A program made the position numbers and the translations under genes. Positions 5,422 to 44,518 of a stretch of 64,000 nt of DNA are shown piece after piece. The first letter of the stretch is position 1, and each line of letters starts with the position of its first letter. The stretch is from Escherichia phage vB_EcoM-E33. Below the pieces are notes generated by a model that saw nothing but the letters and a program-made list of their open reading frames with translations, ran no database searches and was not told where the DNA came from. The stretch is taken from the sequence record OL780484.1, one strand, 5' to 3'.

Positions 5422-5756
5422 TTCCGATGGAACTTGACTGGGACGGCGAAGGCCATTCCCTTAAATTAATCGAAGAGCAGCGTAATGATTGGGACGAGCG
5501 TGTAGCTCTGGTAAACGGTATTAAGAAAATTTATCAACTCAATCTCCAGATTGATAACGTTCATCTTGAATTTGGTATGCAGTTATTACGATTTCTTGAG
5601 ATTATTTTTATTGAAAAGGTAAATATAACTTCGTATGGCGAGGGCCAAACAGTTGATATTAAATTATCATCCTATTATAAAGGTGATTTAATTGAAACTG
5701 CCACCAAAATTCAAGAATTTGCTAAAGATAATGGCCATAAGGTGATTTTCAAATGA
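5409..5756 (+). CDS. hypothetical protein, 115 aa
   Basis: ORF track; overlaps neighbours. Confidence 0.5.
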
Positions 5757-6241
5757 ACCCATTAAAAGGTAAAGAATTATCCTTTAAAGACCGTATGGCC
5801 TTGTTGGATAAAGCTCTTTCTCGCGAGACTCCTGAAAGTCTAGCAGCTAAATTACAGGCCTATGGTGATTACACCGAATATACAGAAGAGGATGTTTTAG
5901 AAGAGGTTCCTGAAATCTGTTGGCAAGTGGCCCATTGGTGTGAAGACCAAAAATTCCAGCGTCGAATTGTGTGTGCTGCAAACCGTTTTAAGTTAAAAGA
6001 TGGTGGAACTCTGGTTATTCCTGCGACACGTCATTACTCTAAAGATATGGGTGCGGTTATCAAGGCAGTTGAAGATAAATTGGTAACACGATTTGTCTGT
6101 GATGATGACCAAGGCTTTGTCGACCAATATGGTAATTATTGGACTCGTGAAGAAGCAATGATAATTGCAACATATGCTAATCAGGTTCGTATTGAACGTG
6201 GTGGTAGTGAAAAAGAACTTTACTCTGAGGACCTTTACTAA
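5753..6241 (+). CDS. hypothetical protein, 162 aa
   Basis: ORF track. Confidence 0.5.
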
Positions 6242-6522
6242 TGAATCTTAAACAACTTCAAATCGATGCAATCGAAACCCATATTAATCATGTTAAACGA
6301 CTGAATGTCATGCTGGAAGACAACTGGGGAACTTATGTCAACCAACCGGCTTGGGATGCTTTAGACCACGAATATATAAAGAATATTAGTTCTAAGACAA
6401 TCCACGGGAATATGGAAGGTTTGAAGCCGTTCCTACGTGATATGTATATTGCAACTAATAAAGAAATTATCAGCTCTCTTGAATATCAATTAAGGAAATT
6501 ACGTGAACAATCTGGTAGCTAA
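6241..6522 (+). CDS. hypothetical protein, 93 aa, in the arn/arn.x cluster position
   Basis: ORF track; size and position near asiA; Arn identity not verifiable from memory. Confidence 0.45.
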   Translation: MNLKQLQIDAIETHINHVKRLNVMLEDNWGTYVNQPAWDALDHEYIKNISSKTIHGNMEGLKPFLRDMYIATNKEIISSLEYQLRKLREQSGS

Positions 6523-37196: not shown

Positions 37197-37409
37197 ATGG
37201 TTAAGAAATTGATTCAGAAATTATTAGGTACGGAAATGGTCGAAGTGACTTATCGTGTGACTGATTTATCTCCTGTGCATCCGCAAGATGAACCATATAC
37301 TAAAACAATTAAAATGCTGAAATCTGATGGCGGATTATCTATTGAAGACCGTCTACCTGGTTATGGTCATTGGGCTGATGTCGAAATTATAAGTGTCAAA
37401 GATGTCTGA
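37197..37409 (+). CDS. hypothetical protein, 70 aa
   Basis: ORF track. Confidence 0.45.
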   Translation: MVKKLIQKLLGTEMVEVTYRVTDLSPVHPQDEPYTKTIKMLKSDGGLSIEDRLPGYGHWADVEIISVKDV

Positions 37410-37860
37410 GTTAGAAATAAGAAGCAATTTTCCATGGCCATCGTGTGCATTAAGTAACTTTGCTAAATGGCCTTTCGTTATGGATGGTATCCAATTTGGA
37501 GGGCTCGAAGGATTCCTCCAAGGGTGTAAGGTGAGAAATCATGAACAACAAAAACGTATATTTGGGATGTCCGGTCTGGCCGCACAACAAACTGGAAGAG
37601 CTTATGCAAGAGCTGCGGACCGTGGGACGCTTTTCTGGCTTGGAATTCCCTTTTCAAGATACTCTACATCATGGAAAGAGTTGTATACAAATGCATATTT
37701 TGAAGCAGCGCTCCAAAACAAAGGATTCCGCGACGCATTACAAGCTACAAAGGGCAAAGTTTTAAAGCATTCGATGGCGAGCCACCTTACAGAATGTGAT
37801 ACAATACTAACTGAAAAAGAGTTTATCGACATCCTAAACAAATTGAGAGATTTATTATGA
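37393..37860 (+). CDS. NADAR-like (YbiA/DUF1768-like) protein, 155 aa
   Basis: SNFAKWPF ... DGIQFGGLEGFLQGCK resembles the NADAR N-terminal core motif; the C-terminal part is divergent. Confidence 0.45.
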   Translation: MSKMSELEIRSNFPWPSCALSNFAKWPFVMDGIQFGGLEGFLQGCKVRNHEQQKRIFGMSGLAAQQTGRAYARAADRGTLFWLGIPFSRYSTSWKELYTNAYFEAALQNKGFRDALQATKGKVLKHSMASHLTECDTILTEKEFIDILNKLRDLL

Positions 37861-38495
37861 AACCAGTTATCTTAACAGATATCGATGGAGTATGTTTAAG
37901 TTGGCAGTCCGGCTTGCCTTATTTCGCACAGAAATATAATTTGCCTTTAGAACATATTTTGAATATGATTCAGGACGAACGTTTCTTATCTCCTGGTGAG
38001 CTGTTTAATTGTGATAATGAATTAGGCGCTCGTTTAATCGAGAAGTACAATCAGTCAGATTTTATTCGTTATCTGTCTCCTTACATGGACGCATTAAAAC
38101 ATATCAACAAGCTCAAAAAAGACTTCGATTTTGTAGCCGTGACTGCGCTAGGCGACTCAATTGATGCACTGCTGAATAGACAATTCAATTTGAATGCTTT
38201 GTTCCCTGGCGCATTCAAGGAGATTCTGATGTGTGGTCATTCAGAATCAAAAGAAGACCTCTTCATAAGAGCTAAAAATACGTACGGTAAACGTATTAAG
38301 TTTTATGTTGATGATTTGGCTCACCACTGTGATGCCGCATCTAATGTTCTCATGGATATCCAAGTTTATTGGTTGGCTCGTGGTGAACGTGACTTTAAAC
38401 CTAATTTGGCCGTAAAGGTTAATTCATGGGACGATATCGCAGCAATCGAATCCCTTCGTAATAATGCCGCAGTTGAATGGATTGCTCGAGGTTAA
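37857..38495 (+). CDS. HAD-superfamily phosphatase, possibly a 5-prime(3-prime)-deoxyribonucleotidase
   Basis: 212 aa; N-terminal motif I LTDIDGV. Confidence 0.5.
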   Translation: MKPVILTDIDGVCLSWQSGLPYFAQKYNLPLEHILNMIQDERFLSPGELFNCDNELGARLIEKYNQSDFIRYLSPYMDALKHINKLKKDFDFVAVTALGDSIDALLNRQFNLNALFPGAFKEILMCGHSESKEDLFIRAKNTYGKRIKFYVDDLAHHCDAASNVLMDIQVYWLARGERDFKPNLAVKVNSWDDIAAIESLRNNAAVEWIARG

Positions 38496-38496
38496 T

Positions 38497-38646
38497 ATGT
38501 TTGTAGTTCATACAATTTCAGACTATGGTCCTACCACTACAATGGATTATGGTCATGTAAACCAGTTTATTCGTCATGTGAATCATGATTACTCATTTGA
38601 TGTAAATCCGGCTAAAGACCATCCTGTTTGGCGCGAATGCGTCTAA
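38497..38646 (+). CDS. hypothetical protein, 49 aa
   Basis: ATG after GAGG, overlapping the HAD stop. Confidence 0.35.
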   Translation: MFVVHTISDYGPTTTMDYGHVNQFIRHVNHDYSFDVNPAKDHPVWRECV

Positions 38647-38785: not shown

Positions 38786-40312
38786 ATGATTTTAGATATT
38801 TTAAACGAAATTGCTGCTATTGATTCTACTAAAGCTAAAGAAGCCATTATTGCTCGTGAAAAGGACAATGAGCTTCTGAAACGTGTTTATCGTATGGCTT
38901 ATACCCGTCGTCTGAACTACGGTATTAAAAAGTGGCCAGAACCTGGATTTACATCTCAATCCTTTGGTATGATTACTCTTGAAGACCTTCTTGATTTCGC
39001 TGAATTCACATTAGCCACACGTAAGATTACGGGTAATGCGGCTATTGAAGAACTGGCTCAAATCATTGCTGATGCCAAGGCCCCGGATGCCGAGGTATTA
39101 CGTCGTGTAATGATGCGCGACCTTGAATGTGGTGCATCGATTTCTATTGCTAACAAGGTTTGGAAAGGTTTAATCCCTGAACAACCGCAGATGTTGGCGA
39201 GTTCTTATGATGAAGCTTTGATTAAGAAAAATATTAAATGGCCAGCGTTTGCTCAATTAAAAGCTGATGGTGCTCGTTGTTTTGCCGAAGTTCGTAACGA
39301 TGGTGTGACATTCCTTACTCGTGGTGGTAACGAATATCAAGGGCTTAATCTTTTGGCGGCTGAATTAATGGCCATGACCGAAGAAGCTCGACAACGCCAT
39401 CCTAATGGCGTTATGATTGATGGCGAATTAGTTTACCATACTCCTAAGGTAGAACCTAAAGCATCTAATGATTTGTTTAGTATGTTTGACGAGGAACTTC
39501 CTGAATTAAGTAAGGCTAAGGAATTCCAAACTGCCGCCGATCGTTCTACGTCAAATGGATTGGCTAATAAGGCTCTTCAAGGAACTATTTCGGCTACTGA
39601 AGCCGCTGGTATGGTATTACAGGCATGGGATTATGTCCCACTGGATGTCGTGTATTCTGAAGGCAAAATTAAAGGCGATAAGTATGATGTACGCTTTACA
39701 GCCTTAGAACTTATGGTGGCTCATAATGTCGTATTGCATGGTACAACGCGGGTTGAAGCTATCGAAAACCAGTGGGTTAATAATCTTGAAGAAGCTAAAG
39801 TCGTTTATAAGAAATATGTCGACCAGGGCCTGGAAGGTATTATCCTTAAGAACATGGACTCCTACTGGGAAAACCGCCGTTCTAAGAATCTTATCAAGTT
39901 CAAAGAAGTAATCGATATTGCTTTAGAAGTGGTGGGTTATTATGAACACTCGAAGGACCCTAACAAGCTAGGTGGTGTCGAGTTGGTATCACGTTGTCGT
40001 CGAATTACAAGCGACTGTGGTTCAGGCTTTAAAGATACCACCCATAAGAAAGATAAATCAGGTAAAAAAGTATTGATTCCATTGGAAGACCGTCCTGATT
40101 TAGACCGTGAACTTCTTATGAAACAAGCTCGTGAAGGTAAATTGATTGGCCGTATTGCCGACTGTGAATGTAATGGTTGGGTTCATTCTAAAGGACGTAC
40201 CGATACTGTAGGTATTTTCCTTCCAATTATTAAAGGTTGGCGTTTCGATAAAACAGAAGCTGATACATTTGAAGATGTATTCGGGTCGTGGGACCAAACA
40301 GGACTTAATTAA
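38786..40312 (+). CDS. 30: ATP-dependent DNA ligase gp30
   Basis: 508 aa from MILDILNEIAAI; similarity to remembered T4 ligase (KDNELLKRVYR, FAQLKADGARCFAEVR, IDGELVYH). Confidence 0.9.
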   Translation: MILDILNEIAAIDSTKAKEAIIAREKDNELLKRVYRMAYTRRLNYGIKKWPEPGFTSQSFGMITLEDLLDFAEFTLATRKITGNAAIEELAQIIADAKAPDAEVLRRVMMRDLECGASISIANKVWKGLIPEQPQMLASSYDEALIKKNIKWPAFAQLKADGARCFAEVRNDGVTFLTRGGNEYQGLNLLAAELMAMTEEARQRHPNGVMIDGELVYHTPKVEPKASNDLFSMFDEELPELSKAKEFQTAADRSTSNGLANKALQGTISATEAAGMVLQAWDYVPLDVVYSEGKIKGDKYDVRFTALELMVAHNVVLHGTTRVEAIENQWVNNLEEAKVVYKKYVDQGLEGIILKNMDSYWENRRSKNLIKFKEVIDIALEVVGYYEHSKDPNKLGGVELVSRCRRITSDCGSGFKDTTHKKDKSGKKVLIPLEDRPDLDRELLMKQAREGKLIGRIADCECNGWVHSKGRTDTVGIFLPIIKGWRFDKTEADTFEDVFGSWDQTGLN

Positions 40313-40532: not shown

Positions 40533-42428
40533 ATGTCCGAACAATTGAATGAGGTATTTGATGGTGATATAAATTTATCTGCTGTCAATTTAAACCCTAA
40601 ACTTAAAGTCCCACAGATTTGGAATATAAAGGCTGAAGGTAACGAGAACCTTGTTGCCCGCATGGTTTCATATACTTCCGAAGGCGATGTAATTCGTCAG
40701 GTTAAGCCTGGTGACAAGTATGTTCATGTCGTTTTAATGAGCCTATCGGCTAAAGGTTCTCCTGCCGAACTCAAAGGTGGATTAGGTACCAATCCTATTT
40801 CCGCTATTCGTTCTATATTTGATATCGTCTATGAACAGGTCAAGGCCCTTCGTATGGACGCTGTTATGTTCCGTTTTCCTACCAAGAAAATGAAAGGGCA
40901 GGAAAAAGCTATACAGAGGGTATTGGCTAAATTAATAGCCTCTAGAGCAGGCGGACAGTTTAAAGTTCTTGATGCCTTGTATCAATTCACCGGTAAGCAT
41001 TCGTATGTTTTTATCTATCGTAAAAATAAAAATATAGAATCTATAAATGGTATTCCTAATATTAATTTAGAATTGTATACTAAAGTCGAATCTGAAGTCG
41101 GTGACGTGTATGTTTCAAAGAAAACAGGCGAAGATGTTACCAAACTAGAAGCTATAGCTAAGTCCATAGACGAAATAGAAAAATCACGTTCTGATAAAAC
41201 TGTTATAACCAAAACAAAGGTTTCTAAACGTGCTGCTATCAATGCTTTATATCCTACAGCAGAGCCTACAGGATTGAGTAAATTTTCGGCAGAGCACAAA
41301 AAAGCTTATGCAGATTATTCTGCTACTAGTTCCGTTCATTCTTCTGAAGATTCTAAAGAAAGCCAAATAGCTTTAGCCAGTAATAAAATATTAAAAGACA
41401 CCTCTAAAGAAATGGCAGAATATTTGGATTATATTTTTAACGGTGTTAATCCATCATTTGAAGTAGACGAGCGCAAACTTAAACTAATTGCTGATATAAA
41501 GTTTGCTTTAGAGGCATCAGATTCTTTAGATAAATCTAATAGTGTCATAGAGGCTTTAAAATCAGGTAAATCTCATGTAGACATTCTTAGACTAGTCGCT
41601 GCGGCCCTTTTAGATGATTCAGTTAAAGGTACTTGGGCTAGAGAATCTAAAATCAAGGAAGTAATAAAATCCTTAGTAGCAGTTTATACAAAATCTATCC
41701 AACCATTGTTTAAGATATCTGATAATCCTAATTTATCCAAACCTCAAGAAGAGGCAGTCAAAAAGTATACTCGTGGCGGCTACAACCATATAAACAACTT
41801 TTTGCTAGGTAAAACAGATACCACCGATGAAATGATAAAAATGATGGGTGAGTTGGATTCTACATTTGAAAATGGTACAAAACTTCCTAAAGGAACCATA
41901 GTGTATCGTTCTCAGATAATGCCTACCGAAATGGCTTTGAATTCTATAAAACATAAGGTGATGTATCTTCCTATTTTTGCATCAACTTCATTGGCTCCTA
42001 ATATTTTCGGTGAAATGGGTCATGCTCAATCCAACTTAGACCCTGAAGCTCTTTCTAGCGATATAGATAGTAATCTTGAAGACACCATTAAAAGTGCGAC
42101 CGGAAGTGCTAGAGATACCATTAAGCTAGGGTTAATTATTAAAGGTGCTGATAAAATTAAGGTTATTGTGCCCGGTGACTTGGCTAATTGGTCTACAGAA
42201 ACCGAAGTAATTCTTCCTCGTGGGGTTATGCTTAAGATTAATAAAGTATACGGTGCTTCCAAGGGACCTATGGGTTCAATTGGTAAATATGTTTTAGTGG
42301 AATGTGAAGTTGTAGCTACCGAGCAAATCACAGAGGAAAATTCATATAGCACCGGATTCTCGTTTGGAAATTATGATAGAATTATGTATGAAGATTCTAT
42401 GGAAAAATTAGCAAATTTATTTAAATAG
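40533..42428 (+). CDS. Alt-like ADP-ribosyltransferase paralog 1 (631 aa)
   Basis: about 230 aa N-terminus shared with the two downstream ORFs; C-terminal YRSQ ... ASTSL ... ETEVILPRG (R / S-x-S / E-x-E ART triad). Confidence 0.7.
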   Translation: MSEQLNEVFDGDINLSAVNLNPKLKVPQIWNIKAEGNENLVARMVSYTSEGDVIRQVKPGDKYVHVVLMSLSAKGSPAELKGGLGTNPISAIRSIFDIVYEQVKALRMDAVMFRFPTKKMKGQEKAIQRVLAKLIASRAGGQFKVLDALYQFTGKHSYVFIYRKNKNIESINGIPNINLELYTKVESEVGDVYVSKKTGEDVTKLEAIAKSIDEIEKSRSDKTVITKTKVSKRAAINALYPTAEPTGLSKFSAEHKKAYADYSATSSVHSSEDSKESQIALASNKILKDTSKEMAEYLDYIFNGVNPSFEVDERKLKLIADIKFALEASDSLDKSNSVIEALKSGKSHVDILRLVAAALLDDSVKGTWARESKIKEVIKSLVAVYTKSIQPLFKISDNPNLSKPQEEAVKKYTRGGYNHINNFLLGKTDTTDEMIKMMGELDSTFENGTKLPKGTIVYRSQIMPTEMALNSIKHKVMYLPIFASTSLAPNIFGEMGHAQSNLDPEALSSDIDSNLEDTIKSATGSARDTIKLGLIIKGADKIKVIVPGDLANWSTETEVILPRGVMLKINKVYGASKGPMGSIGKYVLVECEVVATEQITEENSYSTGFSFGNYDRIMYEDSMEKLANLFK

Positions 42429-42436
42429 GATAGATT

Positions 42437-44518
42437 ATGACCCAATTAAATGAAGTGTTCGAGTCCGAAGGTACACTGCCTGTTGTGAACTTGAACCCAA
42501 AACTTAAAGTACCTCAGATTTGGAAGATTGGAGACGCGGAGTCTCAGTTAGTAGCACGTATGGTATCCTATGCTTCTGAAGGCGATGCTATTAAACAGGT
42601 TAAGATGGGTGATAAATATGCCCACGTTATCCTTATGAGCCTTTCAGCTAAAGGTACTCCAGCAGAACTTAAAGGTGGCTTAGGCCCTACTCCTATTGAT
42701 GCTATTAATACCATTTTCGACGTAGTATTCGAACAGGTTAAAAAGCTTCGTATGGATGCCGTGATGTTCCGTTTCCCTACTAAGAAAATGAAAGGTCAAG
42801 GCCCTATCGTTCAACGGATTATCCAACGTTTGGTAGCACAGAAAACAGGTGGACGTTTTAAAGTAGTTCCGGCTATGTACCAATTTACCGGTAAACATAC
42901 TTACATCCTGGTAGTTCGTAAACAAGCTGATATAGAAGATATCAAAGGTATGCCTGGAATTAATGCTGAATTGTATACTAAGGTAGATTCTGATGTCGGT
43001 GAAGTTTATATTTCTAAAAAAGAAGGCGTGCAGGTTACTAAAGAAACTGCTATCGCCGGTAGTATTGCTAAGGTTGAAGAACGTCGCACTGATAAAATGG
43101 TTATAACCAAGACTAAGATTTCTCGACGTGCTATTGCAGCAAGTCAATCGTTAGAATCTTATCGTAATGAAAGTGAGCTGTTTAAGAAATATGAAGCTAC
43201 TGCAGTAGATTTTAATAAACCGGCAACAGTTCCATTAATCCCTGAGGCTCAGGAAATGGTTACTAATAACAATTCTCCTGCGGCTAAAAATAAGGTTGCT
43301 AATATAGTGGCTGAAGGCACTGCTGAAGAATTGCATTACGATTATAAAATGTTCCCACTTCACGGTATTGGCGAAATCCAAGAGAAAATTAAAGAGAAAA
43401 TTCTTACAGCAATAAAAAACGAACCTTTGACATCTGTTAAAGCTCTAGAAAAATATGCCTCTGCTATTAATACCATTTTCGAAGAATATAAAGGCGAGTG
43501 GCTGGCTATCCATAACAGAACTCGTAAAGGCCAACCTGATGACCTTTGGAACGAATTGACAGAGGCCAAGTGGAAAGCAGCCAAGACTAAGTTCATTAAA
43601 AAACGCGTGTATAGTTTTGCTGGTGTGGGTGGTGGTATTATGGTTGATATTACTATTGCTCGTGAAGGTTCTAAATATACTCCATCACAAAAGCGTGGTA
43701 TCAGAGAATATTGTGGTTCAGGATATACAGACATAAATAATCTTCTTTTAGGACGTTATAATCCTCAGAACTATGAGGTTATGAGCGAAAAAGATATCGA
43801 ATCCGCTGTAAATAATTTAGATTCAGCTTTTGAAAATGGTGACCGTATACCGGAAGGCATTACAGTTTATCGTGCCCAGAGTATGACTGCTCCTATATAC
43901 GAAGCACTAGTTAAAAATAAAGTGTTTTATTTTAGAAATTTTGTATCTACTTCTTTAACTCCTATAATTTTCGGACGTTTTGGTGTTACGCACGCTGGTA
44001 TTGGTCTTTTAGAACCGGAAGTTCGCAACGAATTGACAGTTGATAAAAATGAAGAAGGAATAACTATTAATCCTAATGAAATAAGAGCATATAAAGAAAA
44101 TCCTGATTATGTTAAAGTTCAAATAGGATGGGCTATTGATGGGGCCCATAAAGTTAATGTCGTATATCCAGGAAATCTCGGAATAGCAACTGAAGCCGAA
44201 GTTATTCTACCGCGTGGATTAATGGTCAAAGTTAATAAAATAACAGATGCTTCTAATAATGATGGAACAACATCTAGTAATACAAAACTCATTCAAGCTG
44301 AAGTTATGACAACAGATGAGCTTCAAGAATCTGTGGTATATGATGGTGATGTACTAATGGAAACCGGCGAGTTGGTCGTATATCAAGATGACTTCGATAC
44401 TTCCGAAAGCCCCTTATCTTTTGATTCATTTGTTAAATCTACACGGTTTGATGTACTGCCTCTTTTGGCTTCATGCATAGACCTCTATGACATCCCAGAA
44501 AAATTCATCCAAGGGTAA
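42437..44518 (+). CDS. alt: Alt ADP-ribosyltransferase (693 aa), likely the T4 alt ortholog
   Basis: C-terminal GITVYRAQSMTAPIYEALVKNKVFYFRNFVSTSL and EAEVILPRGLMVKVNKITDAS match my recollection of T4 Alt. Confidence 0.7.
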   Translation: MTQLNEVFESEGTLPVVNLNPKLKVPQIWKIGDAESQLVARMVSYASEGDAIKQVKMGDKYAHVILMSLSAKGTPAELKGGLGPTPIDAINTIFDVVFEQVKKLRMDAVMFRFPTKKMKGQGPIVQRIIQRLVAQKTGGRFKVVPAMYQFTGKHTYILVVRKQADIEDIKGMPGINAELYTKVDSDVGEVYISKKEGVQVTKETAIAGSIAKVEERRTDKMVITKTKISRRAIAASQSLESYRNESELFKKYEATAVDFNKPATVPLIPEAQEMVTNNNSPAAKNKVANIVAEGTAEELHYDYKMFPLHGIGEIQEKIKEKILTAIKNEPLTSVKALEKYASAINTIFEEYKGEWLAIHNRTRKGQPDDLWNELTEAKWKAAKTKFIKKRVYSFAGVGGGIMVDITIAREGSKYTPSQKRGIREYCGSGYTDINNLLLGRYNPQNYEVMSEKDIESAVNNLDSAFENGDRIPEGITVYRAQSMTAPIYEALVKNKVFYFRNFVSTSLTPIIFGRFGVTHAGIGLLEPEVRNELTVDKNEEGITINPNEIRAYKENPDYVKVQIGWAIDGAHKVNVVYPGNLGIATEAEVILPRGLMVKVNKITDASNNDGTTSSNTKLIQAEVMTTDELQESVVYDGDVLMETGELVVYQDDFDTSESPLSFDSFVKSTRFDVLPLLASCIDLYDIPEKFIQG

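Follow-up and report, generated by a model that had tools for sequence, protein, structure and literature searches.

The open reading frame at positions 37402–37860 (+ strand) of the phage DNA analysed here, a stretch of 64,000 nucleotides that we call the window, very probably encodes the counter-defence NADAR enzyme AdfN, and the gene that follows at 37857–38495 a HAD phosphatase that AdfN does not need for its function. T4 gp30.3, the product of the orthologous T4 gene, was described in publications of 2023–2025 and renamed AdfN (anti-DarT factor NADAR) by Johannesman et al. 2025 (PMC11825919). Its role against DarTG1 is already established for T4, so that what we report is the occurrence of a known gene in another, related phage. 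An earlier note on this DNA had suggested that a NADAR protein encoded here could counter DNA ADP-ribosylating toxins, in agreement with the published work, where the 86% identical T4 ortholog strips ADP-ribose from guanine and counters DarTG1 (PMC11825919, PMC11125620).

According to the mechanism that we propose, the bacterial toxin DarT1 would ADP-ribosylate guanines of the phage DNA during infection. AdfN, working as a stand-alone NADAR-fold glycohydrolase, would cut the N-glycosidic bond that links ADP-ribose to guanine, and this cleavage would give replicable DNA again and free ADP-ribose. The neighbouring gp30.2 would be a HAD phosphatase that depends on Mg and has a helical cap; its gene, part of the conserved '30.x' early-gene block of T4, would share a transcript with adfN and be coupled to it in translation. 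The assignment has little significance beyond annotation: the label 'hypothetical protein' that these genes have in genomes of Dhakavirus can now give way to adfN and HAD-family phosphatase, and the present phage is predicted to resist DarTG1.

The adfN gene and its product

The gene, adfN (T4 gene 30.3 ortholog; 37402–37860, +), encodes a 152-aa NADAR-fold protein, a predicted DNA ADP-ribosylglycohydrolase, and is identified by Pfam PF08010, identity to T4, AF2 and Foldseek. The ORF had been placed at 37393–37860 before; the ORF itself is real, but its start is most likely not the GTG at 37393 but the ATG at 37402, since the latter gives MSELEIR..., the N-terminus of T4 gp30.3, and is the start annotated in Escherichia phage vB_EcoM_FB. 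Between this ATG and the stop of gene 30.4, which lies upstream, there is an overlap of 8 nt: ATGTCTGA. Both motifs that had been quoted from the ORF, SNFAKWPF and DGIQFGGLEGFLQGCK, were found in it. The reported overlap with the HAD ORF is also there, as an ATGA in which the stop TGA (37858–37860) and the start ATG (37857–37859) are interlocked. Neither of the two is a chance ORF, as the first matches Pfam Phage_30_3 (PF08010) with E = 3.9e-64 and the second PHROG 420 with E = 1.5e-70.

The product can be aligned with T4 gp30.3 (NP_049816) over 152/152 aa without gaps, at 86% identity and with 22 substitutions. Searches with more distant models gave little: there was no match of the product to Pfam NADAR (PF08719) at E ≤ 1, the family having its own model in PF08010, and PF08719 was matched by 8 of the 48 family members (best E = 1.5e-7). 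Among PDB sequences YbiA came out on top, sub-threshold at E = 1.2 for the single sequence and at E = 0.02 for the family profile. The match to TIGR02464 reached E = 0.093 (13 bits, cut-off 73.7), no PADLOC model was matched significantly, and a single-sequence NCBIfam search stayed sub-threshold too. Because sequence and profile searches were weak or sub-threshold, the fold assignment had to rest on structure prediction. The AF2 model, built from alignments that left out T4 sequences, had a pLDDT of 94.8 and a pTM of 0.89. Foldseek matches of this model in the PDB with a probability of ≥0.99 were solely YbiA (2B3W), the Phytophthora NADAR (PnNADAR, 8BAU) and the DarG1-type NADAR of G. lovleyi (Geobacter; 8BAT), and the remaining PDB matches had a probability of 0.01. 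The NADAR fold of the model and these matches bear out the NADAR-like call that had been made from the sequence. The predicted NADAR membership of the product is based on its fold, on its catalytic residues and on hits reached transitively through the family.

To follow conservation residue by residue we aligned 48 homologs with identities as low as 36%; E36, Q40, K43 and H123 are invariant in them, and the E-x(3)-Q-x(2)-K helix is retained. E36 is the catalytic glutamate (codon GAA, 37507–37509, +; PMC11825919), K43 the ADP-ribose-contacting lysine (AAG, 37528–37530, +; PMC11825919), and H123, in the last strand, the defining residue of the gp30.3 clade of phages (CAT, 37768–37770, +; PMC11125620, PMC11543638). 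The adfN product keeps all three. E36 and K43 are equivalent to the positions mutated in T4 AdfN, which is impaired by E36A, by K43A and by loss of the C-terminal helix, the last through the natural frameshift of RB69; the RB69 allele, which does not have this helix, is inactive (PMC11825919). The product in the window is full length and its model includes the C-terminal helix (138–151). The allele is full length, this helix and the three key residues are intact, and together with orthology and fold this lets us infer with high confidence that it has the same function as T4 AdfN.

Among NADARs, the gp30.3 proteins of phages are recognised as a clade of their own, marked by a His at the position of the YbiA Glu and the DarG1/BC4488 Asp (PMC11543638, PMC11125620), and the literature places them closest to the DarG1-type NADARs. 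The features of the T4 gp30.3/AdfN clade were all found here: H123, identity over the full length, the gene order 30.4-30.3-30.2-30.1-30 and the C-terminal helix. Those of a DarG1 antitoxin were not, as the neighbours are 30.4 and 30.2 and not darT1, an N-terminal extension is missing, and residue 123 is His and not Asp. Those of the YbiA family were not found either, given the 13 bits against the TIGR02464 cut-off of 73.7 and the His where YbiA has Glu.

The best single-sequence match and the best Foldseek match are nevertheless both E. coli YbiA, and with the weak hit to TIGR02464 they would fit a housekeeping N-glycosidase of the YbiA type, acting on intermediates of the riboflavin pathway and not on DNA. 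We regard this as extremely improbable: the TIGR02464 score lies far under its cut-off, the YbiA-defining Glu has become His123 (PMC11125620), and the T4 ortholog has been demonstrated to act in DNA de-ADP-ribosylation. The label 'YbiA-like', used in the earlier note, is not supported either, because of the same replacement of the YbiA Glu by the phage-clade His.

Many close adfN relatives are recorded as shortened products of 91–126 aa, for instance in phages UGJNEcP4, SV76 and vB_Eco_NR1 (proteins P0124–P0126, P0133, P0135 and P0139; locus L084, 4636–5001). They recall the RB69 frameshift and could reflect either recurrent loss of AdfN or differences in gene calling.

The adfN gene also contains a nested ORF of 74 codons in the +1 frame (37541–37765, +), which corresponds to what is annotated as 30.3' in T4. 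Of the 15 orthologs with ≥82% identity, 14 keep this frame open. Its product shares ~58% aa identity with T4 30.3', compared with 86% for the main frame; divergent NADARs have no long 30.3' ORF (median 41 codons, comparable to the shuffle mean of 44), and the nested ORF was marginal against a codon shuffle (P ~0.03). We rejected it as a real overlapping gene on account of its poor protein conservation, its being shut in divergent NADARs and the marginal shuffle P, and it is probably not a conserved functional gene.

Genomic context and the Alt-type ADP-ribosyltransferases

The source phage is a T-even phage of the genus Dhakavirus. The 2.2 kb surrounding both ORFs are 99.7% identical to phage FB (Straboviridae, Tevenvirinae, Dhakavirus), and the same region is 98–99% identical to phages IME281, QL01, WG01 and MX01. 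Against the T4 and FB annotations, the local gene order reads cd - 31 - rIII - 30.9 ... 30.4 - 30.3 - 30.2 - 30.1 - 30 (ligase) - alt, which matches T4 when its opposite strand is read, and 30.8, 30.7, the ligase and two Alt-type ADP-ribosyltransferases were confirmed by Pfam. DNA ligase (gene 30) lies at 38786–40312 (+; Pfam DNA_ligase_A_M, E = 1.9e-23; FB annotation), and the two Alt-type protein ADP-ribosyltransferase paralogs occupy 40533–44518 (+), the first at 40533–42428 and the second at 42437–44518 (Pfam ADPrib_exo_Tox, E = 5.6e-13 and 4.6e-36). The paralogs are tandem and full-length, with 631 and 693 aa; the corresponding region of T4 differs in having one full alt gene and the degenerate fragments alt.-1 and alt.-2.

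Upstream of adfN is the T4 gene 30.4 ortholog (37197–37409, +; 70 aa; PHROG 2042, E = 6.9e-34), the gene whose stop overlaps the adfN start. On the other side, after 30.2, comes a shortened homolog of 30.1 (DUF3045; 38497–38646, +), of 49 aa against the 92 aa found in phage FB. Relative to FB it carries one GAA->TAA change at 38644 (codon 38644–38646), and its Pfam DUF3045 match spans profile positions 1–44 of 88. The shortening is probably a recent pseudogenisation or a sequencing error. A promoter scan of the 30.x block reported promoter-like sites no commoner than in shuffles, and a terminator scan from 30.8 to the ligase found none that was convincing, which fits one transcription unit and is in itself uninformative.

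The distance that the earlier note had given to the phage's own ADP-ribosyltransferases, about 3 kb, was confirmed, as the Alt genes start 3.1 kb further downstream, with the ligase in between. A functional link to them is not supported. Under such a link the NADAR enzyme would edit or reverse what the Alt/Mod ADP-ribosyltransferases of the phage itself have modified, and its place close to alt would be explained; what speaks for this is position alone, namely that two Alt paralogs follow ~3 kb downstream. The arrangement 31-30.x-30-alt, however, is the ordinary T4 gene order, and divergent NADAR loci adjoin neither alt nor the ligase block. Alt is annotated for a protein target, host RNA polymerase, whereas the tested NADARs cleaved guanosine-ADPr on DNA and not thymidine-ADPr; purified T4 gp30.3 hydrolysed the former in vitro and left the latter (PMC11125620). 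An independent transposon screen in T4 showed, moreover, that 30.3 is dispensable on K-12 and lost under DarTG1 (bioRxiv 10.1101/2025.11.20.689424), a phenotype limited to DarTG1. There is hardly any chance, in our estimate, that the enzyme edits or reverses Alt/Mod modifications, and a role of AdfN against DarTG1 is the reading that we retain.

The HAD-family gene and its relation to adfN

The T4 gene 30.2 ortholog (37857–38495, +) encodes a predicted phosphatase of the HAD superfamily (type IA, helical C1 cap) with 212 aa. It shares 74% identity with T4 gp30.2 over 194 residues, without the ~66-aa C-terminal tail of the T4 protein. HAD motifs I–IV were recognised as D8-x-D10-G-V, T96, K132 and D152-D153; in 41 gp30.2 sequences D8, D10, G11, K132, D152 and D153 are invariant, and T96 occurs in ≥90%. 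Motif I (D8-I-D10-G-V12; 37878–37892, +) holds the nucleophile Asp and the general acid/base Asp. The second Asp of this motif is typical of phosphatases and argues against a dehalogenase. As gp30.2 has this DxD motif, established HAD enzymology points to a phosphatase rather than a dehalogenase, and by the same second Asp it would be Mg-dependent. The protein has the Rossmannoid HAD core fold, and the HAD-superfamily call that had been made on the basis of LTDIDGV is upheld by the presence of this motif, by the fold and by the phosphatase-type DxD.

The substrate class can be narrowed tentatively. Single-sequence searches with gp30.2 against PDB sequences, NCBIfam and PADLOC stayed below threshold, as they did for the adfN product. 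Pfam NT5C (PF06941) was matched below threshold by gp30.2 (13.4 bits vs the gathering cut-off of 24.8, E = 0.074). Of the 41 family members, 8 matched Pfam Hydrolase and 4 matched NT5C, the latter at E ≤ 0.1, and the family profile reached mouse 5'(3')-deoxyribonucleotidase 2JAO with E = 0.063. Judging from the relatives nearest in sequence, the 5'(3')-deoxyribonucleotidases, a nucleotidase is the best guess, although it passes no curated threshold. A few database records of gp30.2 homologs already read 'HAD-superfamily hydrolase' or '5'(3')-deoxyribonucleotidase', and none of the papers searched mentions gp30.2. The predicted phosphatase is widely conserved and dispensable. The length of its C-terminal tail is very variable, from none here (212 aa) through ~66 aa more in T4 to up to ~347 aa in other phages, and the longer forms that were compared (including the one at 5475–6311 of locus L001) have a conserved G-I/T-E-Y-L...P-T motif in common.

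The earlier note had treated the two genes as functionally coupled, with the HAD enzyme perhaps acting in nucleotide salvage or on the released sugar phosphate. They are indeed linked physically, by the ATGA overlap, by their common strand and with no terminator between them. A two-enzyme module, in which the HAD protein acts on the ADP-ribose or sugar phosphate that AdfN sets free or is itself the T-even factor that AdfN needs, could be argued from this start/stop overlap and from the same-strand adjacency of the genes throughout T-even-type loci. It could be argued also from the finding that T4 AdfN is reported to require a further T-even factor (PMC11825919). Outside T-even infection T4 AdfN is no working antitoxin, and it cannot substitute for DarG1 in uninfected cells (PMC11825919, PMC11125620). 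In T-even infection AdfN is necessary and sufficient for DarTG1 resistance (PMC11825919). What speaks against the module is that the purified T4 protein is active alone in vitro.

The T4 Tn-seq table speaks against the module most directly. Under DarTG1 the mean reads of 30.3 fell from 261.0 to 0.7 (log2FC -7.25, q = 0), whereas those of 30.2 (71 TA sites) went from 271.5 to 249.8 (log2FC -0.12, q = 1.0); that this sheet of the resampling table compares control with DarTG1 was deduced from where it stands in the file and from the text, which describes the loss of 30.3. As 30.2 is neutral under DarTG1, gp30.2 is therefore not needed for the counter-defence by AdfN. The genes are also separable across T4-like phages. 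A NADAR gene lies within 5 kb of gp30.2 in 34 of 68 loci, always upstream and either abutting or 23–1228 bp apart, and of the 80 NADAR loci in viral contigs 19 have gp30.2 no more than 4 kb away. In at least nine T4-like genomes gp30.2 sits by the ligase block, with a more divergent NADAR (~40% identity to the adfN product) 55–60 kb off. Taken together, these results make a module of the two enzymes very unlikely. We rejected gp30.2 as the missing T-even partner of AdfN on the T4 Tn-seq data and the patchy synteny; the factor on which T4 AdfN depends is unlikely to be this protein. The HAD gene is thus read here as a neighbour that AdfN can do without.

For these genomes the loci L033, L035, L049, L053, L066, L072, L074, L076 and L079 were set against L130, L112, L115, L098, L148, L143, L110, L108 and L106. 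The placement of these divergent NADARs suggests relocation or independent acquisition within T4-like phages.

Besides 30.3, 30.4 was the only gene within the 30.x block to be significantly depleted in the T4 Tn-seq data under DarTG1, and modestly so (log2FC -1.79, q = 0.014). Homologs of gp30.4 are confined to T-even-type loci with a T4-type AdfN and always abut adfN. The depletion may be a polar or translational-coupling effect on the expression of adfN, or gp30.4 may contribute. That the AdfN of T-even phages was 'domesticated', so as to depend on a partner from the phage, and that gp30.4 is this partner, we consider improbable.

Comparison with known systems

The HAD type IA C1-cap phosphatases that can be compared with gp30.2, B. 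subtilis YfnB (3I76) and the 5'(3')-deoxyribonucleotidases 2JAO and 3BWV, share only 13–18% identity with it. For the adfN product, the best structural match is E. coli YbiA (2B3W; E = 6.9e-5, TM 0.68), a riboflavin-intermediate N-glycosidase with which it has the core SNF...W/HP...E..Q..K in common. The two differ in that their identity is 19%, the family-defining Glu of YbiA is His in the adfN product, and YbiA has another biological role. The DarG1 NADARs (BC4488 family; G. lovleyi 8BAT, E. coli C7) have the same fold (Foldseek probability 0.99) and the same chemistry, hydrolysis of guanine-ADPr, as shown for the T4 ortholog of the adfN product. Unlike them, the adfN product has neither an N-terminal extension nor an adjacent darT, and where they have the catalytic Asp in the last strand it carries His. 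Closest of all is T4 gp30.3/AdfN. Both proteins have 152 aa, E36, K43, H123 and the C-terminal helix, and both genes are overlapped by 30.4 upstream and by 30.2 (ATGA) downstream. The differences are the 22 substitutions and the genus, T4 belonging to Tequatrovirus and the present phage to Dhakavirus.
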